This document shows, in pieces, positions 1 to 33,523 of a stretch of DNA of 64,000 nt. Made by a program: the position numbers and the translations under genes. The stretch lies in assembly GCF_024223415.1 (NCBI RefSeq), contig NZ_CP100500.1; one strand, given 5' to 3'. The notes beneath the pieces were generated by a model, which saw nothing but the letters and a program-made list of their open reading frames with translations, did no database searches and had not been told where the DNA came from. This stretch comes from Escherichia coli. GTDB lineage: Bacteria; Pseudomonadota; Gammaproteobacteria; Enterobacterales; Enterobacteriaceae. Each line of letters begins with the position of its first letter. Within the stretch, counting starts at the first letter, position 1.

Positions 1-712
1 GTCGTTCAACCATATGATCGAGCGTATTGAGGATGTCTTTACCCGCCAGTCCAATTTCTCAGCGGACATCGCCCACGAAATTCGCACACCAATTACGAAT
101 CTCATAACGCAAACCGAAATCGCCCTCAGCCAGTCGCGCAGCCAGAAGGAGCTGGAAGATGTGCTCTACTCTAATCTCGAAGAGCTGACGCGAATGGCGA
201 AAATGGTCAGCGATATGCTGTTTCTCGCTCAGGCCGATAACAACCAGCTAATCCCCGAAAAGAAAATGCTCAACCTGGCGGATGAAATCGGCAAAGTGTT
301 CGATTTTTTCGAGGCGTTAGCGGAAGATCGCGGCGTGGAGTTGCAGTTTGTTGGCGACGAGTGCCAGGTTGCGGGCGATCCGCTGATGCTGCGTCGGGCA
401 TTAAGCAACCTGCTTTCTAATGCCCTGCGTTATACGCCACCCGGAGAGGCTATTGTAGTGCGCTGCCAGACGGTCGAGCATCAGGTGCAAGTTATCGTCG
501 AAAACCCCGGTACTCCCATTGCGCCCGAGCACTTACCGCGATTGTTTGACCGTTTCTACCGCGTTGACCCTTCCCGCCAGCGAAAAGGCGAAGGTAGCGG
601 CATTGGGCTGGCGATAGTGAAATCGATTGTTGTCGCACATAAAGGCACGGTTGCAGTAACGTCAGATGCGCGGGGGACAAGGTTTGTGATTGTGTTGCCG
701 GAGAGGGGGTGA
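1..712 (+). CDS. cusS: sensor histidine kinase CusS, C-terminal portion (5' end upstream of window)
   Basis: Frame open from window start to stop at 712; H-box (SADIAHEIRTP) and HATPase_c motifs (NLLSNALRYT, GSGIGLAIV); synteny with nfrB/nfrA/ybcH/envY as in E. coli K-12. Confidence 0.8.
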   Translation, partial: SFNHMIERIEDVFTRQSNFSADIAHEIRTPITNLITQTEIALSQSRSQKELEDVLYSNLEELTRMAKMVSDMLFLAQADNNQLIPEKKMLNLADEIGKVFDFFEALAEDRGVELQFVGDECQVAGDPLMLRRALSNLLSNALRYTPPGEAIVVRCQTVEHQVQVIVENPGTPIAPEHLPRLFDRFYRVDPSRQRKGEGSGIGLAIVKSIVVAHKGTVAVTSDARGTRFVIVLPERG

Positions 713-1305
713 TTATTAAGTTCAAATTCAGGGCGAGGGTTTACGGCGTTTTTCGCTAAATTTCCATCATTATAAACAAGCCACCTATCATATAAAGCAA
801 TGAATAATTAAATCGCGATTAATCATCATTAATTTTTATATTATTCACCCAATCCATTTATAAAGTGAATTTGATAAATTCCTAATTTAAAATATCCACT
901 ATTGAGCCAGTATTTAACAACGTTAAGATGTGCAATGTGCAGATCATGTTATCAGGGTGGAGCGGTAGCATATATTTTTTAAGCAATCATTCATTTTAAT
1001 GATGTTAATTGGGTTATTTAGTTGTGAATAAAAACATATTATGAATATTGGTTTAACTTTGCGTTTTTGTTACTCGCTGTGATGTGCGCACCTGTCCTGA
1101 ATAACGTCAGGAAACAATAAGTTGAGCTTGTGATTATTTTTTTGACTGAACAGACACCCGTTTCTGTAAAGTAATATTTAAACAAAATTCTCACATAATC
1201 ATAGCATTTTTTGTTCCTTCCCTAATAACGTCTTAAGTCGTCCCGCTTATCTCATTATCCGCAGTTGTACGGTGCGGATTATTATTCATTTTACCGGAGG
1301 TTGCT

Positions 1306-3207
1306 ATGTCAACCGGATTACGTTTCACACTGGAAGTGGACGGCCTGCCACCGGACGCTTTTGCGGTGGTTTCCTTTCATCTCACCCAGTCACTCTCTTC
1401 GCTCTTTTCCCTCGATCTCTCCCTGGTCAGCCAGCAGTTTCTCTCCCTTGAATTCCAGCAGATCCTCGACAAAATGGCCTACCTGACGATATGGCAGGGC
1501 GATGACGTACAGCGCCGGGTGAAAGGTGTGGTGACCTGGTTTGAACTGGGGGAGAACGACAAAAACCAGATGCTGTACAGCATGAAGGTATGCCCGCCGC
1601 TGTGGCGTGCCGGTCTGCGCCAGAACTTCCGTATCTTCCAGAACGAGGACATCAAAAGCATCCTCGGCACGATATTGCAGGAAAACGGGGTGACCGAGTG
1701 GAGTCCGCTGTTCAGTGAACCGCATCCTTCCCGTGAGTTTTGTGTCCAGTACGGTGAGACTGATTACGATTTCCTGTGCCGGATGGCGGCGGAGGAAGGC
1801 ATCTTCTTTTATGAGGAGCATGCTTACAAAAGTACCGACCAGAGCCTGGTGCTGTGCGACACGGTCCGCCATCTGCCCGAATCTTTTGAAATCCCATGGA
1901 ACCCGAACACCCGTACCGAGGTGAGCACCCTCTGCATCAGCCAGTTTCGCTACAGCGCACAAATCCGCCCTTCTTCCGTGGTGACCAAAGACTACACCTT
2001 TAAACGCCCCGGCTGGGCAGGACGTTTTGATCAGGAAGGCCAGCACCAGGATTACCAGCGCACGCAGTATGAGGTGTATGACTACCCCGGACGTTTCAAG
2101 GGCGCCCACGGGCAGAACTTTGCCCGCTGGCAGATGGAGGGCTGGCGAAACAATGCAGAAACCGCGCGGGGAATGAGTCGCTCGCCGGAGATATGGCCGG
2201 GACGGCGAATTGTGCTGACGGGGCATCCGCAGGCGAACCTGAACCGGGAATGGCAGGTGGTGGCAAGTGAACTGCACGGCGAGCAGCCGCAGGCGGTGCC
2301 GGGAAGGCGGGGAGCAGGGACGGCGCTGGAGAACCATTTTGCGGTGATCCCGGCAGACCGGACATGGCGACCCCAGCCGCGGCTAAAACCGCTGGTGGAC
2401 GGTCCGCAGAGCGCCGTCGTGACGGGGCCGGAGGGTGAGGAAATCTTCTGTGATGAACATGGCCGAGTGCGGGTGAAATTCAACTGGGACCGTTATAACC
2501 CGGCAGACCAGGACAGCTCGTGCTGGATCCGTGTGGCACAGGCGTGGGCAGGCACCGGTTTTGGCAACCTGGCGATACCGCGTGTGGGTCAGGAGGTGAT
2601 AGTGGACTTCCTCAACGGCGATCCGGACCAGCCGATCATTATGGGGCGCACCTACCACCAGGAAAACCGCACCCCCGGCAGCCTGCCGGGGACGAAGACG
2701 CAGATGACCATCCGTTCCAAAACGTATATGGGCAGCGGGTTTAATGAGCTGAAGTTTGACGATGCGACAGGGAAAGAACAGGTCTACATCCACGCGCAGA
2801 AGGACATGGATACCGAGGTACTCAACGATCGTACCACCACCGTAAAACACGATCATCGCGAAACCGTAAAAAATGACCAGACGGTCACGATACAGGAAGG
2901 TAATCGCCTTCTTATGGTGGAAAAAGGCGACAAGATCACAGGAGTACGAAAAGGTTCTTTATCTGAGAATGTCTTTCAGGACAGAGGCACGATTGCCGGT
3001 TCGGTGCATGTTGACGCTGTAGACAATGGTGGCGAAGGCAACGGTATACAGGCTTATACGGCAATTAAGGAAATTATGCTGGCCGTGGAGGAAAGCAAAA
3101 TTGCGCTGACGCCGGATGGCATTCAGCTACAGGTCGGGGAATCAACGGTAATCAGGCTGTCGAAGGATGGCATCACCATCGTGGGCGGCTCTGTTTTTAT
3201 CAACTGA
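1306..3207 (+). CDS. vgrG: T6SS spike protein VgrG
   Basis: 633 aa; gp27/gp5-like architecture with conserved gp5-type segment (IPRVGQEVIVDFLNGDPDQPIIMG); good RBS (ggaggttgctATG); followed by Eag chaperone and PAAR-Rhs genes. Confidence 0.9.
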   Translation: MSTGLRFTLEVDGLPPDAFAVVSFHLTQSLSSLFSLDLSLVSQQFLSLEFQQILDKMAYLTIWQGDDVQRRVKGVVTWFELGENDKNQMLYSMKVCPPLWRAGLRQNFRIFQNEDIKSILGTILQENGVTEWSPLFSEPHPSREFCVQYGETDYDFLCRMAAEEGIFFYEEHAYKSTDQSLVLCDTVRHLPESFEIPWNPNTRTEVSTLCISQFRYSAQIRPSSVVTKDYTFKRPGWAGRFDQEGQHQDYQRTQYEVYDYPGRFKGAHGQNFARWQMEGWRNNAETARGMSRSPEIWPGRRIVLTGHPQANLNREWQVVASELHGEQPQAVPGRRGAGTALENHFAVIPADRTWRPQPRLKPLVDGPQSAVVTGPEGEEIFCDEHGRVRVKFNWDRYNPADQDSSCWIRVAQAWAGTGFGNLAIPRVGQEVIVDFLNGDPDQPIIMGRTYHQENRTPGSLPGTKTQMTIRSKTYMGSGFNELKFDDATGKEQVYIHAQKDMDTEVLNDRTTTVKHDHRETVKNDQTVTIQEGNRLLMVEKGDKITGVRKGSLSENVFQDRGTIAGSVHVDAVDNGGEGNGIQAYTAIKEIMLAVEESKIALTPDGIQLQVGESTVIRLSKDGITIVGGSVFIN

Positions 3208-3234
3208 TTCACTCAGATTATCAGGGAGTATTTT

Positions 3235-3696
3235 ATGCAGTTCACTTTTAATGAAGGCCACATTCAACTGCCGTCTCAATGGCAGGATCAGTCAATGCAG
3301 GTCCTGGTGTCCACAGATAACAGTGGCATCAACCTGGTCATTACCCGCGAAGCCGTTCCACAGGGAACCCTGACACCAGAGCTGTACCAGGAAACGCTGG
3401 CGCTGTACCAGGGCAAACTTGATGGGTACACCGCACATGCCTGCCGGGAAATCACTCTGGCAGAGGCCCCGGCCTGGCTGCTGGATTATTCCTGGAACGG
3501 TCCGGAAGATGAAGGGAATCAGGGGCGGATTAGCCAGATAGCCGTATTCCAGCGGCGTGGAGATACGCTGCTGACCTTCACTTTCAGCACCTCCTTATCC
3601 CTGAAGAACAGTCAAAAGACGATGCTGCTGGAGGTGATAAAGAGCTTCACCCCGTTGCCACCGGAGAATGATATCCAAAAGGACCAGCCGCGCTGA
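3235..3696 (+). CDS. DUF1795/Eag-family effector chaperone (EagR-like)
   Basis: 153 aa; N-terminal FNEG...LPSQWQDQS signature typical of Eag chaperones; sits between vgrG and a prePAAR Rhs effector. Confidence 0.65.
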   Translation: MQFTFNEGHIQLPSQWQDQSMQVLVSTDNSGINLVITREAVPQGTLTPELYQETLALYQGKLDGYTAHACREITLAEAPAWLLDYSWNGPEDEGNQGRISQIAVFQRRGDTLLTFTFSTSLSLKNSQKTMLLEVIKSFTPLPPENDIQKDQPR

Positions 3697-3715
3697 CATA
3701 AACGAGGGATAACAC

Positions 3716-6700
3716 ATGAGTGAAGGACCAGGCGGGCCACAGGGAGCGACCGCAGGCGGTACGCTGGCAATGCGAATGCTTTCACAGCAGGCGATGGTCG
3801 CCAGCCAGATGAAACGGGCAGCCAACAACAAAGCCATTGCACAGATGTTGGCATCAAAAAAGTCTGGCCCCCCCGCCGCCAGGCTGGGCGATGAAATTCA
3901 GCACAAGAGTTTTTTGGGGGCGCTGGCAGGGGCCGTGCTGGGGGCGATAGTGACCATCGCAGAAGGTTGCCTGATTATGGCCGCCTGTGCCACCGGCCCT
4001 TATGCGCTGGTTCTGGTGCCTGCGCTGATGTATGCCAGCTATAAGGCGAGTGATTATGTGGAGGAGAAACAGAACCAGCTTGAATCATGGATAAACAGCT
4101 TTTGTGACACGGACGGCGCCATCAATACCGGTTCTGAAAACGTAAAAATTAACGGAAAGCCCGCTGCCAGGGCCGCCGTCACCCTTCCCTCTCCTCCCCC
4201 GCCTGAAGCAATACCCGAAGCCTCACAGGGGGAGCATTCATGGGGTGACATGGCCCTTGACCTGCTTGAATCGGCAGCGGAAAAAGCAGCGCCACTGGCT
4301 AAATCCTGGGGGAACGCTGTTATCACCCTGACGGACAGCAATGCCAGTTTTATGGATCGCGTCAGTGCAGGCGCATCGCTTCTGTTTCCCGCCGGTCCGG
4401 TATTAATGGAGTTTGCCACCATGGTGGGCGGGCGTGGCGAAATCAAAAAAGATGTGGATTTCCCGGAAGCCGGTGAGGACACGGCGCTCTGCGACAAGGA
4501 GAACAAACCACCGAGGATAGCCCAGGGCAGCAGCAACGTCTTTATCAACAATCAGCCTGCCGCGCGCAAGGGCGACAAACTGGAGTGCAGCGCGGCAATC
4601 GTGGAAGGTTCGCCGGACGTCTTTATTGGGGGTGAGCAGGTCACCTATCTGGATATCCAGCCGGAGTTCCCGCCATGGCAGAGAATGATCCTGGGAGGAA
4701 TAACGATAGCCAGCTATCTTCTGCCGCCAGCAGGACTGCTGGGAAAACTGGGGAATCTGGCGAAACTGGGCAAACTGGGAAACCTGCTGGGGAAAAGCGG
4801 GAAGCTGCTGGGCGCAAAACTCGGCGCGTTGCTGGGGAAAACAGGTAAGTCGTTAAAAAGTATTGCCAATAAAGTCATCAGATGGGTAACAGATCCTGTC
4901 GATCCGGTAACCGGCGCGTACTGCGACGAACGTACCGACTTCACCCTGGGCCAGACCCTCCCCCTCTCCTTCACCCGTTTCCACAGTTCTGTACTGCCAC
5001 TGCATGGCCTGACGGGCGTGGGCTGGAGCGACTCCTGGAGCGAATACGCCTGGGTGCGTGAACAGGGAAACCGGGTGGATATCATCAGCCTGGGAGCCAC
5101 GCTGAACTTCGCCTTCGACGGTGAAAGTGATACGGCGGTTAACCCGTATCACGCCCAGTACATTCTGCGCCGCTGCGACGATTACCTGGAGCTGTTCGAC
5201 AGGAATGCACTGAGCAGCCGCTTCTTTTATGACGCCTTTCCGGGAATGCGTCTGCGCCACCCGGTGACTGACGATACCAGCGATGACCGCCTGGCACACA
5301 GCCCCGCAGACCGGATGTACATGCTGGGCGGGATGAGCGACACCGCCAGCAACCGCATCACGTTTGAGCGCGACAGCCAGTACCGGATCACGGGTGTCAG
5401 TCACACCGACGGGATCCGGCTTAAACTGACGTACCACGCCAGCGGCTACCTGAAAGCCATTCACCGCACGGATAACGGCATACAGACGCTGGCGACCTAC
5501 GAACAGGATGCGCGGGGGCGGCTGACAGAAGCGGATGCGCGGCTGGACTACCACCTGTTTTATGAGTACGACGCTGCGGACCGGATCATCCGCTGGTCCG
5601 ATAACGACCAGACGTGGAGCCGTTTCACCTACGATGAACAGGGCCGGTGCGTGACCGTCACCGGGGCGGAGGGCTATTACAACGCCACGCTGGACTATGG
5701 TGACGGCTGCACCACCGTGACGGACGGCAAGGGCATTCACCGTTATTACTATGATCCTGACGGCAATATTCTGCGGGAAGAAGCGCCGGACGGCAGCACC
5801 ACCACGTATGAATGGGATGAATTCCATCACCTGCTGGCCCGCCACTCCCCTGCCAGGCGGGTGGAGAAATTTGAATACAACGCCGCACAGGGTCAGTTAA
5901 GCCGTTACACGGCGGCAGACGGCGCGGAGTGGCAGTACTGCTATGATGAGCGCGGCCTGCTCAGCAACATCACCGACCCTGCCGGGCAGACGTGGACGCA
6001 GCAGTGTGATGAACGCGGCCTGCCGGTAAGTCTGGTGTCGCCACAGGGCGAAGAGACCCGGCTGGCGTACACGCCGCAGGGGCTGCTGTCGGGGATATTC
6101 CGCCAGGATGAACGGCGTCTGGGCATAGAGTACGACCACCACAACCGGCCGGAAACACTCACCGACGTGATGGGCCGTGAACACCACACCGAATACAGCG
6201 GTCACGACCTGCCGGTGAAGATGCGCGGCCCCGGCGGTCAGTCAGTGCGGTTGCAGTGGCAGCAGCACCATAAACTGAGCGGCCTTGAGCGGGCAGGAAC
6301 CGGCGCAGAAGGATTCCGCTATGACCGCCACGGCAACCTGCTGGCGTACACGGACGGTAACGGCGTTGTCTGGACAATGGAATACGGCCCGTTCGATTTG
6401 CCGGTGGCGCGAACGGACGGTGAAGGCCACCGCTGGCAGTACCGCTACGATAAAGACACGCTGCAGCTCACAGAAGTCATTAACCCGCAGGGTGAGTCTT
6501 ATCTTTATATTCTGGACAACTGTGGCCGGGTGACGGAAGAACGTGACTGGGGCGGCGTGGTCTGGCGTTACCGTTATGACGCTGATGGCCTGTGTACCGC
6601 CAGGGTCAACGGCCTGGAGGAAACCATCCTCTACGGCCGGGACGCCGCAGGCCGCCTGGCAGAAGTCATCACGCCGGAAGGTAAAACGCAGTATGCGTAT

Positions 6701-8536
6701 GACAAATCCGGCAGGCTGACGGGTATCTTCAGCCCGGACGGCACATCACAGCGCACCGGCTACGACGAACGCGGGCGGGTGAATGTCACCACTCAGGGCC
6801 GACGGGCCATTGAATACCACTACCCCGACGAACATACCGTCATCCGCTGTATCCTGCCACCGGAAGATGAACGCGACAGACACCCCGATGAATCCCTGCT
6901 GAAAACCACGTACCGCTACAACGCAGCCGGAGAACTGACGGAGGTTATCCTGCCGGGGAATGAGACGCTGACGTTCAGCCGTGATGAGGCAGGACGTGAA
7001 GTGTTCCGGCACAGTAACCGGGGTTTTGCCTGTGAGCAGGGCTGGAATGCAGCCGGCCAGCTTACCAGCCAGCGCGCCGGACTTTTCCCGGAGGAAGCCA
7101 CGTGGGGCGGGCTGGTTCCGTCACTGGTGCGGGAGTACCGTTACGACAGCGCGGGTAATGTGTCAGGCGTCACCAGCCGGGAAGATTACGGACGGGAAAC
7201 ACGGCGGGAATACCGGCTGGACCGGAACGGCCAAGTCACGGCGGTGACAGCCTCAGGCACCGGGCTGGGCTATGGCGAAGGCGATGAGTCCTATGGCTAT
7301 GACAGCTGTGGCTACCTGAAGGCGCAGTCTGCGGGCAGGCACCGGATAAGTGAAGAGACTGACCAGTATGCCGGAGGCCACCGGCTGAAACAGGCCGGAA
7401 ACACGCAGTATGACTATGACGCCGCAGGCCGGATGGTCAGCCGGACAAAACACCGTGACGGCTACCGCCCGGAAACAGAGCGGTTCCGGTGGGACAGCCG
7501 GGACCAGCTGACCGGGTATTGCAGCGCACAGGGTGAGCTGTGGGAATACCGCCACGACGCCAGCGGCAGACGAACAGAGAAACGCTGCGACCGGAAGAAA
7601 ATCCGCTTCACGTATCTGTGGGACGGCGACAGTATTGCGGAAATCCGGGAATACCGCGATGATGAACTGTACAGCGTACGGCACCTGGTGTTTAACGGCT
7701 TTGAGCTGATAAGCCAGCAGTTCAGCCGGGTACGGCAGCCGCACCCGTCCGTGGCTCCGCAGTGGGTGACGCGGACGAATCATGCGGTGAGCGACCTGAC
7801 GGGCCGGCCGCTGATGCTCTTTAACAGTGAAGGTAAAACCGTCTGGCAGCCGGGACAGACCAGCCTGTGGGGGCTGGCACTCAGCCTGCCCGCAGACACA
7901 GACTACCCGGACCCGCGCGGGGAACTGGACCCGGAAGCCGACCCCGGCCTGCTGTATGCGGGACAGTGGCAGGATGCGGAATCCGGGCTGTGCTATAACC
8001 GGTTCCGGTATTACGATCCGGAAACCGGAATGTACCTGGTGAGTGATCCGCTGGGGTTGCAGGGAGGGGAGCAGACTTACCGGTATGTGCCTAATCCTTG
8101 TGGGTATGTTGATCCCTCTGGGTTGGCAATGACTTCGAAAATAGTCAATAAACTACCTTCTGCAAAAGATCTTGCTACAAAAAGGGCCAGTGAGTTATTA
8201 GCAAAGGCAACATCTAATACCCAGCGAAGTAAATTACCAAGGGCAGTTTCAGCTGTTGTTGATAAGAGAACTGGCAAAATATATTATGGAGAAAGTGGCT
8301 GGCCTCACCCAACAGAAATACATCCTACATTACAAAATAATATGCCATCAGCCAGTAAGGAGCGATGGGCAATCGAGAACTGTGCGGAATTTAAAGCTGT
8401 AAATGAAGCTTTGAAGGCAAATGCGAAAATTAGTGATCTTGAAGTTCATACAGTATTGGTAAAAACAGGCGAAGCTTTTCCAATGTGTAAGAATTGTCAA
8501 ATTTCAATATTTGGCGCTGTTGTTACAAGCGGGTGA
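3716..8536 (+). CDS. prePAAR/PAAR-domain Rhs polymorphic toxin (T6SS effector) with deaminase-like C-terminal domain
   Basis: 1606 aa; prePAAR motif AARLGDEIQH, hydrophobic helices, PAAR-like segments (NGKPAARAAV, NNQPAARKGD), long YD-repeat core, DPLGL demarcation motif, then ~140 aa divergent AT-rich tail containing CAE...PMCKNC. Confidence 0.9.
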   Translation: MSEGPGGPQGATAGGTLAMRMLSQQAMVASQMKRAANNKAIAQMLASKKSGPPAARLGDEIQHKSFLGALAGAVLGAIVTIAEGCLIMAACATGPYALVLVPALMYASYKASDYVEEKQNQLESWINSFCDTDGAINTGSENVKINGKPAARAAVTLPSPPPPEAIPEASQGEHSWGDMALDLLESAAEKAAPLAKSWGNAVITLTDSNASFMDRVSAGASLLFPAGPVLMEFATMVGGRGEIKKDVDFPEAGEDTALCDKENKPPRIAQGSSNVFINNQPAARKGDKLECSAAIVEGSPDVFIGGEQVTYLDIQPEFPPWQRMILGGITIASYLLPPAGLLGKLGNLAKLGKLGNLLGKSGKLLGAKLGALLGKTGKSLKSIANKVIRWVTDPVDPVTGAYCDERTDFTLGQTLPLSFTRFHSSVLPLHGLTGVGWSDSWSEYAWVREQGNRVDIISLGATLNFAFDGESDTAVNPYHAQYILRRCDDYLELFDRNALSSRFFYDAFPGMRLRHPVTDDTSDDRLAHSPADRMYMLGGMSDTASNRITFERDSQYRITGVSHTDGIRLKLTYHASGYLKAIHRTDNGIQTLATYEQDARGRLTEADARLDYHLFYEYDAADRIIRWSDNDQTWSRFTYDEQGRCVTVTGAEGYYNATLDYGDGCTTVTDGKGIHRYYYDPDGNILREEAPDGSTTTYEWDEFHHLLARHSPARRVEKFEYNAAQGQLSRYTAADGAEWQYCYDERGLLSNITDPAGQTWTQQCDERGLPVSLVSPQGEETRLAYTPQGLLSGIFRQDERRLGIEYDHHNRPETLTDVMGREHHTEYSGHDLPVKMRGPGGQSVRLQWQQHHKLSGLERAGTGAEGFRYDRHGNLLAYTDGNGVVWTMEYGPFDLPVARTDGEGHRWQYRYDKDTLQLTEVINPQGESYLYILDNCGRVTEERDWGGVVWRYRYDADGLCTARVNGLEETILYGRDAAGRLAEVITPEGKTQYAYDKSGRLTGIFSPDGTSQRTGYDERGRVNVTTQGRRAIEYHYPDEHTVIRCILPPEDERDRHPDESLLKTTYRYNAAGELTEVILPGNETLTFSRDEAGREVFRHSNRGFACEQGWNAAGQLTSQRAGLFPEEATWGGLVPSLVREYRYDSAGNVSGVTSREDYGRETRREYRLDRNGQVTAVTASGTGLGYGEGDESYGYDSCGYLKAQSAGRHRISEETDQYAGGHRLKQAGNTQYDYDAAGRMVSRTKHRDGYRPETERFRWDSRDQLTGYCSAQGELWEYRHDASGRRTEKRCDRKKIRFTYLWDGDSIAEIREYRDDELYSVRHLVFNGFELISQQFSRVRQPHPSVAPQWVTRTNHAVSDLTGRPLMLFNSEGKTVWQPGQTSLWGLALSLPADTDYPDPRGELDPEADPGLLYAGQWQDAESGLCYNRFRYYDPETGMYLVSDPLGLQGGEQTYRYVPNPCGYVDPSGLAMTSKIVNKLPSAKDLATKRASELLAKATSNTQRSKLPRAVSAVVDKRTGKIYYGESGWPHPTEIHPTLQNNMPSASKERWAIENCAEFKAVNEALKANAKISDLEVHTVLVKTGEAFPMCKNCQISIFGAVVTSG

Positions 8537-8540
8537 TTAT

Positions 8541-8978
8541 ATGTGTGAATTAATTAATGAAGCATCAAAATATGGGAAAGTCAATGTAAGAAAGATGGAC
8601 ATTGATTTGTGTTGTAAAAAAATAGAGGAAGAAGGGTATTCTGTTTTCGTTGCGTTCTATGATTTTATAAAAAAATATGGCGGTTTATATGGCTTTCATT
8701 CAGCTTACAAAGACACCACTATAAGTGAGGCTTTTTTTATAGATCCAGAAAGGGCCTCTAATCGCATTTTTATAGAAAGAGTCAATGATTATATTGAGAG
8801 AGCTGGTTACAATATGATTCCTGTTGGCGAGTGCAGTAATGGTCATATCACATTATTATATGGGGAAAATAATGTGATATATGGCGGCTTGGATGATTAT
8901 CTTTGGAAGTATGGGGATAATTTATCTTCATCAATTGATATATTGATTAATGGTAAGGAGGCAGTTGAAATTCCGTAA
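8541..8978 (+). CDS. putative immunity protein for the Rhs C-terminal toxin
   Basis: 145 aa from internal ATG (track ORF 8511..8978), starting 5 nt after rhs stop; AT-rich like the toxin tail; assigned by position only. Confidence 0.55.
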   Translation: MCELINEASKYGKVNVRKMDIDLCCKKIEEEGYSVFVAFYDFIKKYGGLYGFHSAYKDTTISEAFFIDPERASNRIFIERVNDYIERAGYNMIPVGECSNGHITLLYGENNVIYGGLDDYLWKYGDNLSSSIDILINGKEAVEIP

Positions 8979-8986
8979 GGCCAACT

Positions 8987-10909
8987 GCCAGGGCCAACGG
9001 CCTGGAGGAAACCATCCTCAACAGCCGGGACGCCGCAGGCCGCCTGGCAGAAGTCATCTCGCCGGAAGGCAAAACGCAGTATGCGTATGACAAATCCGGC
9101 AGGCTGACGGGTATCTTCAGCCCGGACGGTACATCACAGCGCACCGGCTATGATGAACGCGGGCGGGTGAATGTCACCACTCAGGGCCGACGGGCCATTG
9201 AATACCACTACCCCGATGAACACACCGTCATCCGCTGTATCCTGCCACCGGAAGATGAACGCGACAGACACCCCGATGAATCCCTGCTGAAAACCACATA
9301 CCGCTACAACACCGCCGGAGAACTGACGGAGGTCATTCTGCCGGGGGATGAGACGCTGACGTTCAGCCGTGATGAGGCGGGACGTGAAGTGTTCCGGCAC
9401 AGTAACCGGGGTTTTGCCTGTGAGCAGGGCTGGAATGCAGCCAGCCAGCTTGTCACCCAGCGCGCCGGATTTTTCCCGGAGGAAACCACATGGGGCGGGC
9501 TGCTCCCCTCACTGGTACGGGAGTACCGTTACGACAGCGCGGGCAATGTGTCGGCTGTCACCAGCCGGGAAGATTACGGACGGGAAACACGGCGGGAATA
9601 CCGGCTGGACCGGAACGGCCATGTCACGGCGGTGACAGCCTCAGGCACCGGGCTGGGCTATGGCGAAGGCGATGAGTCCTATGGCTATGACAGCTGCGGC
9701 TACCTGAAGGCGCAGTCTGCGGGCAGGCACCGGATAAGTGAAGAGACTGACCAGTATGCCGGAGGCCACCGGCTGAAACAGGCCGGAAACACGCAGTATG
9801 ACTATGACGCCGCAGGCCGGATGGTCAGCCGGACAAAACACCGTGACGGCTACCGCCCGGAAACAGAGCGGTTCCGGTGGGACAGCCGGGACCAGCTGAC
9901 CGGGTATTGCAGCGCACAGGGTGAGCAGTGGGAATACCGCCACGACGCCAGCGGCAGACGGACGGAAAAACGCTGTGACCGGAAGAAAATCCGTTTTACG
10001 TACCTGTGGGACGGCGACAGTATTGCGGAAATCCGGGAATACCGCGATGATGAACTGTACAGCGTACGGCACCAGGTGTTTAACGGCTTTGAGCTGATAA
10101 GCCAGCAGTTCAGCCGGGTACGGCAGCCGCACCCGTCCGTGGCCCCGCAGTGGGTGACGCGGACGAATCACGCGGTGAGCGACCCGACGGGCCGCCCGCT
10201 GATGCTCTTTAACAGTGAAGGCAAGACGGTCTGGCGGCCGGGGCAGACCAGCCTGTGGGGGCTGGCACTCAGCCTGCCCGCAGACACCGACGACCCGGAC
10301 CCGCGCGGGGAACTGGACGCGGAAGCCGACCCCGGCCTGCTGTATGCAGGACAGTGGCGGGATGGGGAATCCGGGCTGTGCTATAACCGGTTCAGGTACT
10401 ACGAGCCGGAAACCGGAATGTACCTGGTGAGTGATCCACTGGGGTTGCTGGGGGGTGAGCAGACTTACCGGTATGTGCCTAATCCACTGGGTTGGATTGA
10501 CCAGTATGGACTTGCTGGTTGCCCCAGAGCTCTGGCAAGGGCAATGAAACGGGCTAACAGAAACCTAGCTAAGAGTGCCGGATACATGAATCGAGCTTGG
10601 TATAAATTCAAAGGTTCTGCCGCCCATCATATTGTTGCTTGGGATGACCCCCGTGCTTTAGGCGCAAGAAAAATTCTGGAAAAATATGGTATACACATTG
10701 ATTCCGCAGAAAATGGAATATTTTTGAAACATGTAGATCCAAACTCTCTTCAGCCAGGATCTTATCATCGTGTTATTCATACGAACAAATATTATGCTGA
10801 TGTTGAGGCACGACTCGCAGACGCAGCTAAGGCTAATGGGAAACAAGGTGTTCTTGATGAGTTAGATGCTATCAGGGATGACCTGCTTTTTAATAGACTA
10901 ATTTATTAA
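8987..10909 (+). CDS. orphan Rhs C-terminal cassette (core 3' fragment plus alternative toxin domain with AHH nuclease motif)
   Basis: DNA ~8987-10485 is a near-duplicate of main rhs ~6598-8097; after the DPLGL motif the tail differs and contains SAAHHIVAWDD; lacks N-terminus (first ATG at 9167), so may be silent. Confidence 0.7.
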   Translation, partial: ARANGLEETILNSRDAAGRLAEVISPEGKTQYAYDKSGRLTGIFSPDGTSQRTGYDERGRVNVTTQGRRAIEYHYPDEHTVIRCILPPEDERDRHPDESLLKTTYRYNTAGELTEVILPGDETLTFSRDEAGREVFRHSNRGFACEQGWNAASQLVTQRAGFFPEETTWGGLLPSLVREYRYDSAGNVSAVTSREDYGRETRREYRLDRNGHVTAVTASGTGLGYGEGDESYGYDSCGYLKAQSAGRHRISEETDQYAGGHRLKQAGNTQYDYDAAGRMVSRTKHRDGYRPETERFRWDSRDQLTGYCSAQGEQWEYRHDASGRRTEKRCDRKKIRFTYLWDGDSIAEIREYRDDELYSVRHQVFNGFELISQQFSRVRQPHPSVAPQWVTRTNHAVSDPTGRPLMLFNSEGKTVWRPGQTSLWGLALSLPADTDDPDPRGELDAEADPGLLYAGQWRDGESGLCYNRFRYYEPETGMYLVSDPLGLLGGEQTYRYVPNPLGWIDQYGLAGCPRALARAMKRANRNLAKSAGYMNRAWYKFKGSAAHHIVAWDDPRALGARKILEKYGIHIDSAENGIFLKHVDPNSLQPGSYHRVIHTNKYYADVEARLADAAKANGKQGVLDELDAIRDDLLFNRLIY

Positions 10910-10922
10910 TAAGGGCATAGTA

Positions 10923-11456
10923 ATGAATGTTTATTTAATTCGGCATGATGTGGACAACTTCAAGTTTTACTTGCAAGACGAGAGTGACTTTCTTTCAGTT
11001 GCTGCTTTTGATTTTTGTGGAGAGTCTCTATTTAATGGATGGAAACCATACAAAATAGAGCTATTTAAAGGAAAAACTAAAGCTGAGAAATCATTAAACG
11101 GGGATTTTAATTCATCATGTTTTAGTCCAGGATTATTATACGTCGAACATTCTCTCGCAGATGTATTATCTCGTCAGGCAAATGATATTGAGTTATTAAA
11201 AGTAATCACCAGTGATGATCGTGATTTTTATTATGCAAACGTGGTAGGGAAAATACCAGCCTTACATTATAACAACAGACAAGAGCTACAAATTATGAGT
11301 AGAACACAAGAATATAAATTCAATAACTCCATAAATGAAATGTTAATATTTCGTGATAAAACATTACCTTCAAACTATTTTGTTACAGATCGTTTTGTGG
11401 ATATTTTTCAGAATGATTTTCGTGGGGTAATTTTTAAAAAAGTTGGTGAGATATAA
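10923..11456 (+). CDS. putative immunity protein for the orphan Rhs-CT
   Basis: 177 aa, AT-rich, immediately downstream of orphan toxin stop; assigned by position. Confidence 0.5.
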   Translation: MNVYLIRHDVDNFKFYLQDESDFLSVAAFDFCGESLFNGWKPYKIELFKGKTKAEKSLNGDFNSSCFSPGLLYVEHSLADVLSRQANDIELLKVITSDDRDFYYANVVGKIPALHYNNRQELQIMSRTQEYKFNNSINEMLIFRDKTLPSNYFVTDRFVDIFQNDFRGVIFKKVGEI

Positions 11457-11482
11457 CTTAATGCATTGAACATCTAACCCGT

Positions 11483-12015
11483 ACCGCTATGACCGCCACG
11501 GTAACCTGCTGGCGTACACGGACGGTAACGGCGTTGTCTGGACGATGGAATACGGCCCGTTCGATTTGCCGGTCGCGCGAACGGACGGTGAAGGCCACCG
11601 CTGGTGGTACCGCTACGATAAAGACACGCTGCAACTGACAGAAGTCATCAACCCGCAGGGTGAGTCATATCTTTATGTTCTGGATAACTGTGGCCGGGTG
11701 ACGGAAGAGCGTGACTGGGGCGGCGTGGTCTGGCGTTACCGCTATGACGCCGATGGCCTCTGTACCGCCAGGGTCAACGGACTGGAGGAAACCATCCTCT
11801 ACAGCCGGGACGCTGCAGGGCGCCTGGCAGAAGTCATCACGCCGGAAGGGAAAACGCAGTATGCGTATGACAAATCCGGCAGGCTGACGGGTATCTTCAG
11901 CCCGGACGGCATATCACAGCGCACCGGCTATGACGAACGCGGGCGGGTGAATGTCACCACTCAGGGCCGACGGGCAGGGAAAGATCATCAGAAGTTCACT
12001 TTTTGTACTAAATAA
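11483..12015 (+). pseudogene. truncated rhs core fragment
   Basis: ~11483-11975 duplicates main rhs ~6316-6807, then diverges into a short tail before a stop; no toxin domain; abuts the H-repeat element. Confidence 0.7.
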
Positions 12016-13400
12016 TTCGCATTTTATGTTTAAAAATTGAGATATTCCTCATTATCCGAAGCTGTTTTTTATTGCTTATACATGATCAAATACTCCTTAC
12101 ATAATTAAGGAGAACAAAATGGAACTTAAAAAATTGATGGAACATATTTCTATTATCCCCGATTACAGACAAGCCTGGAAAGTGGAACATAAATTATCAG
12201 ATATTCTACTGTGGACTATTTGTGCCGTTATTTCTGGTGCAGAAGGTTGGGAAGATATAGAGGATTTTGGGGAAACACATCTCGATTTTTTGAAGCAATA
12301 TGGTGATTTTGAAAATGGTATTCCTGTTCACGATACCATTGCCAGAGTTGTATCCTGTATCAGTCCTGCAAAATTTCACGAGTGCTTTATTAACTGGATG
12401 CGTGACTGCCATTCTTCAGATGATAAAGACGTCATTGCAATTGATGGAATAACGCTCCGGCACTCTTATGATAAGAGTCGTCGCAGGGGAGCGATTCATG
12501 TCATTAGTGCGTTCTCAACAATGCACAGTCTGGTCCTCGGACAGATCAGGACGGATGAGAAATCTAATGAGATTACAGCTATTCCTGAACTTCTTAACAT
12601 GATGGATATTAAAGGAAAAATCATCACAACTGATGCGATGGGTTGCCAGAAAGATATTGCAGAAAAGATACAAAAACAGGGAGGGGATTATTTATTCGCT
12701 GTAAAGGGAAATCAGGGGCGACTAAATAAAGCCTTTGAGGAAAAATTCCCGCTGAAAGAATTAAATAATCCAGAGCATGACAGTTACGCAATCAGTGAAA
12801 AGAGTCACGGCAGAGAAGAAATCCGTCTTCATATTGTTTACGATGTCCCTGATGAACTTATTGATTTCACGTTTGAATGGAAAGGGCTGAAGAAATTATG
12901 CGTGGCAGTCTCCTTTCGGTCCATAATAGCAGAACAAAAGAAAGAGCCAAAAATGACGGTCAGATATTATATCAGTTCTGCTGATTTAACCGCAGAGAAG
13001 TTCGCCACAGCAATCCGAAACCACTGGCACGTGGAGAATAAGCTGCACTGGCGTCTGGACGTGGTAATGAATGAAGACGACTGCAAAATAAGAAGAGGAA
13101 ATGCAGCAGAATTATTTTCAGGGATACGGCACATTGCTATTAATATTTTGACGAATGATAAGGTATTCAAGGCAGGGTTAAGACGTAAGATGCGAAAAGC
13201 AGCCATGGACAGAAACTATCTGGCGTCAGTCCTTGCGGGGAGCGGGCTTTCGTAATCTTGCCCTGCCTGCTCACCTCCAGGCACTTCCACTACATCATGA
13301 CCTGATCGGTGCCACCACTCCTCTTCACTATGACGTTAACCTCCCCTCCTTGACACCACGCTTTTGTCTACATTCTACGCAAACGGCAACTTTTATAACC
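11976..13400 (+). mobile_element. H-repeat (ISAs1-family) insertion element; boundaries approximate
   Basis: Homology to rhs ends at ~11975; contains the transposase ORF; right end not resolved by eye. Confidence 0.45.
12119..13255 (+). CDS. ISAs1-family transposase (H-repeat-associated protein)
   Basis: 378 aa; classic H-rpt protein sequence ([31 protein letters not shown]...); known association with Rhs elements. Confidence 0.9.
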
Positions 13401-13520
13401 AGTGTAAAAATAACGTGCCGCAATAGTCATACCTATTAATGGTAAAAAGCTGTCACAATTCATAAAAAACCTTAATATACGCCACCCTAAACATAACCAG
13501 CGTTAATGTAAGGTTTTTGT

Positions 13521-15758
13521 GTGGACTGGCTTCTTGATGTTTTTGCTACCTGGCTCTACGGCTTAAAAGTAATCGCGATAACGTTAGCGGTCATCATGTT
13601 CATCAGCGGGCTGGACGATTTTTTTATTGATGTCGTCTACTGGGTACGCCGCATTAAACGCAAGTTGAGTGTTTATCGCCGCTACCCGCGAATGAGTTAC
13701 CGCGAACTGTATAAACCAGATGAAAAACCGTTAGCGATTATGGTTCCGGCGTGGAATGAAACGGGCGTCATCGGCAATATGGCCGAGCTGGCGGCGACCA
13801 CGCTCGACTACGAAAACTATCATATCTTTGTTGGCACCTACCCCAACGACCCGGACACTCAGCGTGATGTTGACGAAGTGTGCGCTCGCTTCCCGAATGT
13901 GCATAAGGTAGTCTGCGCGCGTCCTGGCCCCACCAGCAAAGCCGACTGTCTGAACAACGTGCTGGACGCCATCACCCAGTTTGAGCGTAGCGCCAATTTC
14001 GCATTTGCTGGTTTTATTCTGCATGACGCCGAAGATGTGATTTCACCGATGGAGTTGCGTCTGTTCAACTATCTGGTCGAGCGTAAAGATCTGATTCAGA
14101 TCCCGGTATACCCATTCGAACGCGAATGGACGCACTTCACCAGCATGACTTACATTGATGAGTTTTCAGAACTGCATGGCAAAGATGTTCCGGTGCGTGA
14201 AGCCCTCGCCGGACAAGTACCCAGCGCAGGCGTCGGCACCTGTTTCAGCCGCCGCGCCGTGACCGCTCTGTTAGCTGATGGTGACGGTATTGCTTTCGAC
14301 GTGCAAAGTCTTACTGAAGATTACGACATTGGCTTCCGCCTGAAAGAAAAAGGTATGACGGAAATTTTTGTCCGTTTTCCGGTGGTGGATGAAGCCAAAG
14401 AACGCGAGCAGCGTAAATTTTTACAGCACGCACGGACGTCAAACATGATCTGCGTGCGCGAATATTTCCCCGATACCTTTTCGACTGCGGTTCGACAAAA
14501 ATCCCGCTGGATCATCGGCATTGTTTTCCAGGGCTTTAAAACCCATAAATGGACCTCCAGCCTGACGCTGAACTACTTTCTCTGGCGCGACCGCAAAGGG
14601 GCAATCAGTAACTTTGTCAGCTTCCTCGCGATGCTGGTGATGATCCAGCTTTTGCTGTTGCTGGCGTATGAAAGTTTGTGGCCCGATGCCTGGCATTTCC
14701 TTTCTATTTTTAGCGGCAGCGCATGGTTAATGACCCTGCTGTGGCTAAACTTTGGCTTGATGGTTAACCGCATCGTGCAGCGGGTGATTTTCGTCACTGG
14801 CTACTACGGCCTCACGCAGGGGCTACTATCTGTCCTGCGTCTTTTCTGGGGCAACCTGATTAACTTCATGGCCAACTGGCGCGCGTTAAAACAGGTACTT
14901 CAACACGGCGATCCACGTCGCGTCGCGTGGGATAAAACAACGCATGACTTCCCCAGCGTCACTGGCGATACCCGCTCGTTGCGCCCGTTAGGTCAAATTC
15001 TGCTGGAAAATCAGGTCATCACTGAAGAACAGCTCGATACAGCACTGCGTAATCGCGTCGAAGGTCTACGCCTGGGCGGTTCAATGCTGATGCAGGGGCT
15101 GATTAGCGCCGAGCAGCTGGCACAGGCGCTGGCAGAGCAAAACGGCGTGGCGTGGGAATCCATCGATGCCTGGCAGATCCCGTCCTCGCTGATTGCCGAA
15201 ATGCCGGCCTCCGTGGCGCTGCATTATGCGGTACTGCCGCTGCGTCTGGAAAATGATGAGTTAATTGTCGGCAGTGAAGATGGTATTGACCCGGTTTCGC
15301 TGGCGGCCCTGACGCGTAAAGTCGGACGCAAAGTGCGTTACGTCATTGTTCTGCGGGGACAAATTGTCACGGGGTTACGTCACTGGTATGCACGCCGACG
15401 CGGTCACGATCCGCGGGCAATGTTGTACAATGCGGTTCAGCATCAGTGGCTCACGGAACAGCAGGCCGGTGAAATCTGGCGGCAATATGTGCCGCATCAG
15501 TTCCTGTTCGCCGAAATACTGACCACGCTCGGTCATATTAATCGTTCAGCAATTAACGTGTTGTTATTGCGCCATGAACGCAGTTCTCTGCCGCTCGGCA
15601 AGTTTTTGGTCACCGAAGGCGTTATCAGCCAGGAAACGTTGGATCGCGTCCTGACAATTCAACGCGAATTACAAGTTTCGATGCAATCACTATTACTCAA
15701 AGCAGGTTTAAACACAGAACAGGTTGCGCAACTGGAGTCCGAAAATGAAGGAGAATAA
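13521..15758 (+). CDS. nfrB: glycosyltransferase NfrB (phage N4 adsorption protein B)
   Basis: 745 aa, GTG start; family-2 glycosyltransferase with N-terminal membrane helices; synteny with nfrA. Confidence 0.9.
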   Translation: MDWLLDVFATWLYGLKVIAITLAVIMFISGLDDFFIDVVYWVRRIKRKLSVYRRYPRMSYRELYKPDEKPLAIMVPAWNETGVIGNMAELAATTLDYENYHIFVGTYPNDPDTQRDVDEVCARFPNVHKVVCARPGPTSKADCLNNVLDAITQFERSANFAFAGFILHDAEDVISPMELRLFNYLVERKDLIQIPVYPFEREWTHFTSMTYIDEFSELHGKDVPVREALAGQVPSAGVGTCFSRRAVTALLADGDGIAFDVQSLTEDYDIGFRLKEKGMTEIFVRFPVVDEAKEREQRKFLQHARTSNMICVREYFPDTFSTAVRQKSRWIIGIVFQGFKTHKWTSSLTLNYFLWRDRKGAISNFVSFLAMLVMIQLLLLLAYESLWPDAWHFLSIFSGSAWLMTLLWLNFGLMVNRIVQRVIFVTGYYGLTQGLLSVLRLFWGNLINFMANWRALKQVLQHGDPRRVAWDKTTHDFPSVTGDTRSLRPLGQILLENQVITEEQLDTALRNRVEGLRLGGSMLMQGLISAEQLAQALAEQNGVAWESIDAWQIPSSLIAEMPASVALHYAVLPLRLENDELIVGSEDGIDPVSLAALTRKVGRKVRYVIVLRGQIVTGLRHWYARRRGHDPRAMLYNAVQHQWLTEQQAGEIWRQYVPHQFLFAEILTTLGHINRSAINVLLLRHERSSLPLGKFLVTEGVISQETLDRVLTIQRELQVSMQSLLLKAGLNTEQVAQLESENEGE

Positions 15759-19790: not shown

Positions 19791-20552
19791 ATGCAATTGA
19801 GCAGCAGTGAACCTTGCGTGGTGATCCTGACCGAAAAAGAGGTAGAGGTAAGCGTCAATAACCATGCTACGTTTACCCTTCCGAAAAACTACCTGGCCGC
19901 CTTCGCGTGCAACAATAACGTCATTGAACTCTCAACGTTAAATCACGTATTAATCACCCACATCAACCGTAACATCATCAACGATTATCTGTTGTTTTTA
20001 AATAAGAACTTAACCTGTGTAAAGCCCTGGTCGCGGCTGGCTACCCCGGTTATCGCTTGTCATAGCCGTACACCGGAAGTGTTCCGGCTAGCCGCCAACC
20101 ACAGCAAGCAGCAACCCAGCAAACCCTGCGAAGCGGAGTTGACGCGCGCATTGCTTTTTACCGTATTGTCTAACTTTCTTGAGCAATCGCGGTTTATTGC
20201 CCTACTGATGTATATCTTACGCAGCAGCGTCCGCGACAGCGTCTGCCGCATTATTCAAAGCGATATTCAGCATTACTGGAATCTGCGAATTGTCGCCAGT
20301 TCGCTATGTTTAAGCCCCAGCCTGCTCAAAAAGAAATTAAAAAACGAAAATACCAGCTATAGCCAGATTGTCACAGAGTGTCGTATGCGTTACGCCGTAC
20401 AGATGTTATTGATGGATAACAAAAATATCACTCAGGTGGCGCAATTATGTGGCTATAGCAGCACGTCGTACTTTATCTCTGTTTTTAAGGCGTTTTACGG
20501 CCTGACACCGTTGAATTATCTCGCCAAACAGCGACAAAAAGTGATGTGGTGA
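19791..20552 (+). CDS. envY: AraC-family porin regulator EnvY
   Basis: 253 aa; C-terminal AraC HTH; position between ybcH and ompT. Confidence 0.85.
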   Translation: MQLSSSEPCVVILTEKEVEVSVNNHATFTLPKNYLAAFACNNNVIELSTLNHVLITHINRNIINDYLLFLNKNLTCVKPWSRLATPVIACHSRTPEVFRLAANHSKQQPSKPCEAELTRALLFTVLSNFLEQSRFIALLMYILRSSVRDSVCRIIQSDIQHYWNLRIVASSLCLSPSLLKKKLKNENTSYSQIVTECRMRYAVQMLLMDNKNITQVAQLCGYSSTSYFISVFKAFYGLTPLNYLAKQRQKVMW

Positions 20553-20597
20553 AGGGCAAAGCGGAAACGGATAAGACGGGCATAAATGAAGAAGAAA

Positions 20598-20645
20598 TGG
20601 CGCGCCCTGCAGGATTCGAACCTGCGGCCCACGACTTAGAAGTTC
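20598..20645 (-). other. partial tRNA-Arg (argU) 3' end copy, prophage attachment-site core
   Basis: Minus strand reads CTTCTAAGTCGTGGGCCGCAGGTTCGAATCCTGCAGGGCGCGCCA, i.e. anticodon loop to CCA end of argU, with no 5' half. Confidence 0.8.
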
Positions 20646-21065
20646 CTAGAACGACATTTTAAGTCAACAACTTACCGCGCCATCTCTGCGCTCACACGTC
20701 CCACTACCTCAAAACATGTAAAGCCTTGCAAGCCATTGTGAGGCCTTATGTGTCTCAGTTTTGTCCCTCTTTTTTGTACCAAAAAACATAGCAATTGAGG
20801 ATAAACCTCATGCTATTTTCGCTTATATGCCTCTAAAGGCATGGCACTTAAATAGATAAAAGCACCACAAAAGCATAAAAAAACCACACAGTAAAACCGC
20901 AATATGAAACAATAACAGATAATTAAACCAAAAACAGATAGCGCATTGTGATAATCATTCAATACTAAACAAAATATAAACAGTGGAGCAATATGTAATT
21001 GACTCATTAAGTTAGATATAAAAAATACATATTCAATCATTAAAACGATTGAATGGAGAACTTTT

Positions 21066-22019: not shown

Positions 22020-22268
22020 GAACGCCAACTAAAATTTCCCCGAGGTGAAAATCGCCCCGGGGAATAACTAGCCATTTCAATGTAACAATTAACCCTTAAA
22101 ATAAACCCAGAAGGTTATTAACTAAATCACATAAAAAACCATCAATTATAGTATGTATAAAATAGGCGACAGCAACCCAATTACAAATTAATGGTTCCAG
22201 AATATCACATCAAAAAAAACGCTGTATAATATTATAATTAACATGTAGACAACTTGTAATAAACATTA

Positions 22269-23018: not shown

Positions 23019-23577
23019 CTTGCACCTATCATAAAATTAAAACAAGTTGATAGCAGTCAAATAACAACCAATTAAATACACAATCATAATCAGGATGATG
23101 TGCATTTATATTTTTATACACAAAATTATAGTTTGCAAATTTTAATAAATTTCATTTAAGATTAAATTATTATATGTATATTGTTTTTTATTCTAACGTA
23201 TTTCAAAGTTACATTTTTCAACGCTTACTATACTTTTTATTAACATAAACTCACTACAACGCACCTGAAACCTCTTGCTATATATATGTCAACCGTTTGA
23301 ATTTAAAATAAAAAGAGTATCATTTTTACTTGCATTTCTTATCAAGTCACATTCAACAACAGTAAAAAAACATTATTAGAACCATTCAATTAACAAAAAA
23401 CCAACATCCAGCTTGCTTAATTTTTCTTTATTAAACGATATTGAAAATCAATTGATAAAATACATCTAAACAACCTTTTGGGGCGCAAAAGCATAACATC
23501 AAACAAACAAATAACACACCGAAAAAACTCACAATTAATAACCTATGATATACATACTGTTTATTATGGTTGAATAA

Positions 23578-23824: not shown

Positions 23825-23880
23825 TTAACCCCTTGTAATTCATTGCCATAATTGATTTAATTCACAAATAAAACTATAAC

Positions 23881-33519: not shown

Positions 33520-33523
33520 GGGA

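Follow-up and report, generated by a model that had tools for sequence, protein, structure and literature searches.

What does the last part of an Rhs protein do when its codons turn rich in A and T, and what shields the cell that makes it? The question is raised by a stretch of 64,000 nucleotides of Escherichia coli (RefSeq assembly GCF_024223415.1, contig NZ_CP100500.1; the window, hereafter), where a PAAR-Rhs gene ends in such a tip and is followed at once by a small open reading frame (ORF). Very probably, the protein is a live type VI effector of the Rhs kind, carrying a zinc-dependent deaminase as its tip, and this tip is blocked by a SUKH-3 protein that binds it directly. A preliminary description, made from the letters of the DNA only, had proposed a deaminase toxin and its immunity protein at this place. 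All the elements that it named are confirmed here, with small coordinate corrections, and its interpretation is supported by sequence comparison and modelling as far as fold, family and immunity are concerned.

Two DPxGL motifs end the Rhs core: DPLGL at amino acids (aa) 1444-1448 (nucleotides (nt) 8045-8059) and DPSGL at aa 1466-1470 (nt 8111-8125). The former, first taken as the demarcation, is present as described, but the operative demarcation is the latter, within PCGYVDPSGL (aa 1461-1470), a sequence of the classical PxxxxDPxGL form. The IAI1 allele of this rhs gene is homologous as far as nt 8136 and not beyond (blastn). The G + C content falls from 0.60 in the core to 0.39 in the tip, and the small ORF has 0.33, so that the shift to AT-rich codons perceived in the last ~140 residues holds. 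Taken together, the second motif, the end of the IAI1 homology and the fall in G + C content place the tip at aa 1471-1606 (136 residues, nt 8126-8533). A pair of aspartates, D1444 in DPLGL and D1466 in PCGYVDPSGL, lies 22 residues apart, which suggests that the protein may cleave itself after PCGYVDPSGL, at L1470. By analogy, the end of the core would combine an aspartyl autoprotease with its own cleavage site, and release of the tip after L1470 is expected. The layout typical of such cleaved tips, with its PxxxxDPxGL end, its pair of aspartates and a match to the Rhs-associated core model TIGR03696, is recognisable in the sequence.

Beyond this point, what sort of protein is it? The triplet CAE (aa 1556-1558) is followed by PMCKNC (aa 1589-1594), with 30 residues in between, very much as noticed at first sight; the zinc signature, announced as PCxxC, reads P-x-C-x-x-C instead. 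In Pfam, the tip matches the YwqJ-like deaminase family PF14431 (expect values (E) 3.8e-6 and 2.7e-6, about 28 bits, model positions 5-130 of 138), with an additional weak match to dCMP_cyt_deam_1. A word-index homologue search was nearly empty, with only two relatives of the tip and four of the immunity protein, so that an exhaustive search of representatives was needed to reveal the family: a HMMER scan of 1.84 billion cluster representatives gave 384 members at E <= 1e-3, 158 of them at E <= 1e-10. The YwqJ-deaminase profile matches 44 of 64 family members at E <= 1e-3 (best value 8e-9). A single-sequence search of PDB with the tip found no match. The profile of the family, when compared with PDB, retrieved tetrameric cytidine deaminases as the sole sequence matches (E 7e-4), over some 48 residues spanning NCAE...PxCxxC.

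The catalytic and zinc-binding positions are conserved within the family. C1556 and E1558 are each kept in 132 of 134 sequences, C1594 in 133 and C1591 in all; in a narrower alignment the same four residues (C86, E88, C121 and C124 in tip numbering) are invariant. Other near-invariant positions are S1527, G1528, P1544, S1547, N1555, A1557, N1563, G1569, T1579 and N1593, the latter found in 131 of 134 members, while W1551 is found in 114. Among the proteins that carry the homologues are those of the Rhs and PAAR kinds and giant proteins with repeats. Of the 133 homologues in which the domain is covered, nearly all have it finish only a few residues short of the C-terminus or right at it, and most stop no more than ~5 residues from the point where the present tip stops. 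This near-universal extreme C-terminal position is a hallmark of the tips of polymorphic toxins.

A model of the tip was built with AlphaFold2 from an alignment of 64 sequences, and it reaches a mean predicted local distance difference test score (pLDDT) of 96.6 and a predicted template modelling score (pTM) of 0.89. In tip numbering, it runs through a helix (13-27), two strands (40-46 and 52-56) and an insert with a short helix (67-72), then a helix that starts from CAE (87-97), a strand (105-111), a helix that starts from CxxC (122-127) and a vestigial strand (132-133). This fourth strand has two residues only, then the chain ends, 12 residues past C1594, with neither strand 5 nor helix 4. 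Among the AFDB50 models the nearest are Rhs tips, including one of Pectobacterium versatile (64% identity, template modelling score (TM) 0.86), and proteins named YwqJ-like deaminase are also found there (TM about 0.7). A chance occurrence of CAE...CxxC is excluded by the family and the fold. Profile and structure-prediction comparison with the deaminase clades had been suggested at the outset as the way to check the proposal of a deaminase-fold tip; the YwqJ-like match, the conserved Cys/Glu/Cys/Cys set and the confident model with its deaminase fold bear this proposal out, and the assignment of the fold, as predicted from sequence and model, is secure.

Whether the tip belongs to the YwqJ-like clade in the strict sense is another matter. 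This clade is one of eight deaminase subfamilies tied to interbacterial toxin systems (PMC7901873), and its combination with SUKH-3 and with Rhs or PAAR carriers was predicted by comparative genomics (Iyer, Zhang, Rogozin and Aravind 2011, PMC3239186). It is characterised by a Gx[CH]xE motif in helix 2, by an insert ahead of CxxC, by chains that often stop after helix 3 or strand 4, by immunity proteins of the SUKH-3 or Imm6 families, and by Rhs, PAAR and other carriers (PMC3239186, Table 1). Examples are the LXG toxin YwqJ of Bacillus subtilis (with YwqK), YenC2 of Yersinia entomophaga, TccC6 of Photorhabdus and the Rhs tip cluster Prhs24 of Pectobacterium; surveys after 2011 reported YwqJ-like tips on Rhs proteins of Pectobacterium and on TcC proteins, without functional tests. 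With these the E. coli tip has in common the Pfam match, CxE in helix 2, CxxC at helix 3, a chain cut short past helix 3 or strand 4, carriers of the Rhs and PAAR kinds, and SUKH-3 immunity. It also has the histidine-bearing insert of the clade: 26 residues separate G58 from N85 (family median 26), including the short helix 67-72, and H1536 lies there within I-H-P (His in 66 of 134 members, the next Pro in 96). The spacing from strand 3 to CxxC, counted from T109 to C121, is 11 residues (family range 10-17), which may or may not amount to the insert that the clade has before CxxC.

There are differences as well. Where the clade has Gx[CH]xE the tip reads E-N-C-A-E, with E1554 in place of the glycine, which is present in 16 of 134 members, and the subfamily has a signature of its own, x-N-C-A-E followed by C-x-N-C with an invariant asparagine. 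Moreover YwqJ itself is an LXG, type VII toxin of a Gram-positive bacterium, and differs in carrier and route. Because the Pfam score is 28 bits and the leading glycine is absent, we place the tip in a divergent NCAE/CxNC subfamily within or beside the YwqJ-like family. To judge from its sequence, it is a divergent relative in the Pfam YwqJ-like family, not a canonical member of the clade. As for the combination of tip, immunity gene and carrier, it is already known from the prediction of 2011; the present locus is one further case, and nothing in it is conceptually new.

What protects the producer? The small ORF seen directly after rhs opens with an ATG at 8541, four bases past the rhs stop, and ends at 8978. 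Its product belongs to the SUKH-3 family according to Pfam, and RefSeq describes it as a SUKH-3 domain-containing protein; a single-sequence search of PDB with it returned noise only (E > 1). The partnership recurs at other loci. Seven distant homologues of the tip (35-53% identity in the toxin) were placed in their genomic context; the contig of the seventh ended at the toxin, and in all six loci with downstream DNA a SUKH-3 gene comes next (products of 146-153 aa), either overlapping the stop of the toxin gene or starting at most ~80 bases from it. The two proteins were also modelled as one chain, the tip, a (G4S)6 linker and the immunity protein, from an alignment with seven paired rows in addition to unpaired ones. 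This chain has a pTM of 0.86, which is an indirect measure of docking, with both domains above a pLDDT of 93 and the linker alone below 50. For two domains of nearly equal size, such a pTM argues for a confidently fixed mutual position, that is, for a predicted complex. The tip is basic and its partner acidic (isoelectric points (pI) of 9.5 and 4.7). The family match, the six loci and the predicted docking thus favour an adjacent, cognate immunity gene, as had been proposed. A SUKH-3 protein of Salmonella enterica is 65% identical to that of E. coli, so that this type of toxin and immunity, or at least the immunity gene, circulates beyond E. coli.

How would the toxin leave the cell? A VgrG gene, a gene for an Eag-type chaperone and a prePAAR motif, all upstream of the tip, indicate type VI delivery, in so far as sequence can tell. 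In the Rhs protein, Pfam recognises prePAAR_I over aa 54-100 (E 4.4e-5), then a split PAAR domain (PAAR_motif, 2.9e-10), then DUF6531, and NCBIfam adds YD repeats and Rhs_assc_core. The sequence AARLGDEIQH (aa 54-63) conforms to the pattern AARxxDxxxH that Ahmad et al. reportedly gave for prePAAR in 2020. The layout is that of class I prePAAR effectors, with vgrG and the Eag gene upstream and with prePAAR, a membrane segment and PAAR in the Rhs protein. Other Rhs tips of E. coli could be delivered only with the vgrGO1 and eagR that lie upstream of rhs, and for tips with this arrangement of genes secretion and killing were shown to depend on the type VI apparatus (Ma et al. 2017, Environ Microbiol 19:345, according to PMC6730261). 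The vgrGO1-eagR-PAAR-Rhs-CT islands of that work, in the later accounts of it, follow the order found here: vgrG, eagR (DUF1795), a PAAR-Rhs gene with a variable tip, an immunity gene and orphan cassettes. An Rhs-AHH tip, which these accounts describe for E. coli, is shared too, being present here as the orphan cassette (bioRxiv 2024.03.05.583533, PMC6730261). The deaminase tip that they cite is MafB19-like, while here it is YwqJ-like.

We may now put these pieces in sequence. The Eag chaperone, of the DcrB family, would keep the PAAR-Rhs protein soluble in spite of its prePAAR and membrane segment, and the protein would be mounted on the VgrG spike via its PAAR domain. The Rhs shell would enclose the C-terminal tip, cut after L1470, and firing into a neighbouring bacterium would release 136 residues of basic protein. 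This would be a hydrolytic deaminase, zinc-dependent and minimal in size, from a divergent subfamily of the YwqJ-like kind, with its elements in the order helix 1, strands 1 and 2, the 26-residue insert, helix 2 (C1556, E1558), strand 3, helix 3 (C1591, C1594) and the short strand 4; its three cysteines would hold the zinc ion, and E1558 would shuttle the proton. Its likeliest target is a cytosine ring in a polynucleotide, DNA having a slight lead over RNA, and intoxicated cells would stop growing through uracil-driven damage or miscoding. In the producer, the acidic SUKH-3 protein would bind the tip directly and so afford self-protection. Probably, though with no great assurance, the locus as a whole is therefore best explained as a type VI effector-immunity module in a vgrG island between cusS and nfrB, directed at cytosine in a polynucleotide.

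The identity of the substrate is where this account is most exposed. A cytosine ring is favoured because the site has three cysteines, is of the Cys-x-Glu type, and has the cytidine and blasticidin-S deaminases as its nearest relatives; a polynucleotide is favoured because the toxin deaminases that have been tested act on DNA (PMC7901873). The interbacterial clades tested are those of DddA, SsdA and BaDTF3, and all three are DNA cytosine deaminases, SsdA in spite of its homology to RNA editors (PMC7901873). Like the E. coli tip, DddA (BaDTF1/SCP1.201), SsdA (BaDTF2/DYW-like) and BaDTF3 (Pput_2613-like) are small zinc deaminase tips delivered by type VI systems and matched by a dedicated immunity protein, and DddA shares the prePAAR and PAAR linkage as well. 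They differ from it in clade and in the family of the immunity protein, and for them the DNA substrate has been shown (PMC7901873).

In the light of these precedents one might suppose, as the preliminary description implied, that the tip specifically deaminates double-stranded or single-stranded DNA, with mutagenic consequences for survivors and possible use as a very compact base-editor domain. Tentative as it is, this reading falls under the best explanation as one of its cases and takes roughly one third of the total. A resemblance might be added to the precedent of the three toxin clades, no more than that: Ser-Gly-Trp (aa 1527-1529) is reminiscent of SsdA. Against it, the tip belongs to no clade of DNA-deaminase toxins, its Pfam matches being to YwqJ and, weakly, to dCMP_cyt_deam_1, and the chromosome of B. 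subtilis was visibly intact after induction of YwqJ (PMC8321402). RNA would deserve a little over a fifth of our belief, and a small molecule or nucleotide somewhat more than a quarter, with the remainder left to other substrates.

As a side remark on the triplet just mentioned, it is encoded at 8294-8302 and opens the insert joining strand 2 to helix 2; the SGW motif that it recalls adjoins the active site of SsdA, a single-stranded DNA deaminase toxin (PMC7901873). We rejected it as evidence of a link to SsdA: serine and glycine are conserved in the family and tryptophan is not, Trp being outside the six commonest residues at the position of W1529.

The homotetrameric cytidine and blasticidin-S deaminases (CDD/CDA clade) suggest a different outcome. 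Like the tip, they bind zinc through a three-cysteine site and have an N-C-A-E motif, and they are housekeeping or resistance enzymes that act on free nucleosides. One might then keep the effector, the fold and the immunity as they are and suppose that the substrate is a free nucleotide, a nucleoside or another small molecule, for example (d)CTP or (d)CMP turned into uracil nucleotides, death resulting from the collapse or poisoning of a metabolite pool and not from the editing of a polymer. We think this unlikely, yet it draws on several observations. The only PDB sequence matches, with their NCAE...PxCxxC, are the tetrameric cytidine deaminases just named, the tip is very small and, in the model, devoid of extra nucleic-acid-binding elements, and YwqJ was toxic with no visible effect on chromosome or ribosomal RNA (rRNA), its authors writing that it 'may act on small molecules' (PMC8321402).

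The architecture of the tip speaks against this option. Cytidine and blasticidin-S deaminases work as tetramers, and their C-terminal part, with neighbouring subunits of the tetramer, helps to form the nucleoside pocket. They keep their C-terminal strands; the tip, a predicted secreted toxin with its inhibitor, lacks the complete core with strands 4 and 5, has nothing after strand 4, where these parts of the pocket would follow, and carries the 26-residue insert before helix 2. A small-molecule target also sits badly with the interbacterial deaminase toxins tested so far, which all act on DNA (PMC7901873). Finally, a basic tip with an acidic inhibitor is common for enzymes of nucleic acids, and would fit the binding of nucleotide phosphates too.

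To be sure, the preference for a type VI toxin directed at cytosine in a polynucleotide has to be held in the face of a number of contrary observations. The tip lies outside the clades of DddA, SsdA and BaDTF3, with no match at the level of sequence and no membership by structure, and the solved folds nearest to it act on free nucleosides or on a nucleoside antibiotic, not on polynucleotides. No alignment column of the family has 60% or more of lysine and arginine, hence no obviously conserved basic groove. In B. subtilis YwqJ, a potent toxin neutralised by YwqK, halted growth without visible change in chromosome or rRNA, and a small-molecule target was suggested (PMC8321402). No paper defining a substrate for the YwqJ clade was found in the literature searched, the coverage of which was incomplete. 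The modest Pfam score and the missing glycine of Gx[CH]xE weaken the attribution to the family, and the docking of tip and SUKH-3 protein is read indirectly. Type VI core genes are absent from the 64-kb window, to which the examination was confined.

These reservations leave room for a more unusual outcome, which we regard as possible though somewhat short of an even prospect: among the deaminase effectors of type VI systems, this tip would be the first with a target other than DNA, a pared-down, four-stranded enzyme that kills via a nucleotide pool such as (d)CTP or by editing one specific RNA. If this were true, it would define the activity of the whole YwqJ-like clade, including YwqJ of B. 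subtilis and the insecticidal TcC tips such as YenC2. The substrate question of the clade is easy to test here, because the case is native to E. coli, its delivery module is known and the immunity gene that goes with it is present. With its 136 residues the tip is among the smallest deaminase domains, and it would be of interest for base editing if it acted on DNA or RNA. The interest of the locus is moderate, and stems from this question and from the ease of testing in E. coli.

Is the toxin still alive? Its distribution was counted in 5426 complete E. coli genomes. The whole tip is present in four of them (SCU-316, O78 strain 3, NCTC9112 and KV7), at 99.9-100% identity. Only its last 127 nt are found in 302 others, including IAI1, O26:H11 and O111 strains, and the breakpoint, at 8410 of the window in almost all of the matches listed, is downstream of the CAE codons, so that this remnant cannot be active. 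The immunity gene occurs in 365 genomes; in 278 it is covered over at least 80% of its length, at 95-99% identity, and annotated as an intact SUKH-3 coding sequence (CDS). In IAI1, positions 7157-7733 correspond to 8410-8986 of the window, remnant and immunity gene together, and they sit behind another main tip, a toxin with the restriction-endonuclease fold, and the immunity gene of that tip. This is C-terminal displacement: in a common lineage the deaminase cassette was pushed from the main gene and its immunity gene retained. All told, a dead remnant goes together with an intact immunity gene in about 300 genomes. The pattern is a clean example both of this process and of an immunity gene that outlasts its toxin.

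With a whole tip in four genomes, a truncated remnant in about 300 and a modest Pfam score, one might suspect the cassette of being a relic, in decay or already inactive, its motifs kept by descent after killing was lost, or its CAE...CxxC coincidental. We hold this to be very improbable. The frame of 1606 codons is intact, all four catalytic and zinc residues and the other near-invariant positions of the family are kept, and the structure model is very confident. The four genomes that carry the nearly identical tips have an intact immunity gene too, and intact orphan immunity genes persist in about 280 genomes, as expected if the toxin is still a threat.

In the window itself, the deaminase tip occupies the main position and a cassette with an AHH nuclease lies downstream (Table 1). 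Repeats of the rhs core flank the deaminase-immunity cassette: 8984-10485 repeats 6596-8097 directly, over 1.5 kb at 95.6% identity, and 11484-11975 repeats 6316-6807 at 95.5% (blastn, repeat finder). Recombination between the 1.5-kb repeats would remove the deaminase cassette and join the AHH tip onto the full-length rhs gene. The module would thus be exchangeable, the downstream rhs repeat allowing the orphan AHH tip to be swapped in.

Table 1. Features of the vgrG island in the window (positions in nt of the 64,000-nt stretch; family assignments and roles as predicted)
Feature	Position	Strand	Basis
VgrG spike protein, 633 aa; its gene opens the island	1306..3207	+	NCBIfam TIGR03361 VI_Rhs_Vgr, E 1.1e-189; RefSeq: type VI secretion system tip protein VgrG
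Gene for an Eag-type chaperone of 153 aa, DcrB/DUF1795 family	3235..3696	+	Pfam DcrB PF08786, E 2.9e-27; RefSeq: DcrB-related protein; gene order repeated in one homologue locus
PAAR-Rhs effector gene, 1606 aa, intact	3716..8536	+	ORF and translation
prePAAR motif AARLGDEIQH, aa 54-63, then hydrophobic glycine-zipper segment	3875..3904	+	translation
End of the Rhs core, DPLGL and PCGYVDPSGL	8045..8125	+	motif positions; Rhs_assc_core TIGR03696, E 2e-19
Toxin tip, aa 1471-1606, 136 aa and stop; predicted divergent YwqJ-like zinc deaminase, stops after strand 4	8126..8536	+	
C1556-A-E1558, predicted first zinc ligand and catalytic glutamate, start of helix 2	8381..8389	+	family conservation
P-M-C1591-K-N-C1594, predicted second and third zinc ligands, start of helix 3	8480..8497	+	family conservation
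SUKH-3 immunity gene, 145 aa, pI 4.7	8541..8978	+	Pfam SUKH-3 PF14433, E 1.3e-12; RefSeq WP_033815380.1
Orphan rhs 3' fragment with alternative AHH-nuclease tip	8984..10909	+	blastn, repeat finder; RefSeq: pseudogene without N-terminus
Small ORF, 177 aa, presumed immunity gene of the AHH orphan cassette	10923..11456	+	position only; RefSeq: hypothetical
Second short rhs core fragment	11484..11988	+	blastn, repeats; RefSeq: partial pseudogene
ISAs1-family transposase gene, end of the island	12119..13255	+	NCBIfam NF033564, E 3.5e-122

The island lies between cusS and nfrB of the E. coli chromosome. Positions 3000-13500 of the window are 99.92% identical to E. coli NCTC9112 (blastn), and the RefSeq annotation of that strain contains a CDS identical to the PAAR-Rhs CDS at 3716-8536. 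NCBIfam has no model that matches the tip, the immunity protein, the Eag-like gene or the 177-aa ORF, and an Rfam scan of positions 1-14000 of the window found no RNA family. Promoter-like and terminator-like sites near the cassette occur at chance frequency only, including a 10-of-12 site at 8259-8287, inside the tip.

A few features of the neighbourhood may be noted. The tip of the orphan cassette at 8984-11456 belongs to the AHH family of HNH nucleases (AAHHIVAWDD; Pfam AHH PF14412, E 1.8e-16), and its demarcation is PNPLGWIDQYGL instead of the usual DPxGL ending. The ORF of the ISAs1 transposase is intact in the window, with 378 aa; the annotation of NCTC9112 lists its copy as a pseudogene, with an internal stop. 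Further on, at about 22000-64000, a lambdoid prophage follows ompT; its genes for tail, head, lysis and replication lie on the minus strand, and in NCTC9112 its position is taken by a lambdoid prophage related to DLP12. For positions 20000-40000, only one complete E. coli genome reaches a coverage of at least 80% (83%, at 96.8% identity), and it is none of the four that bear the tip.

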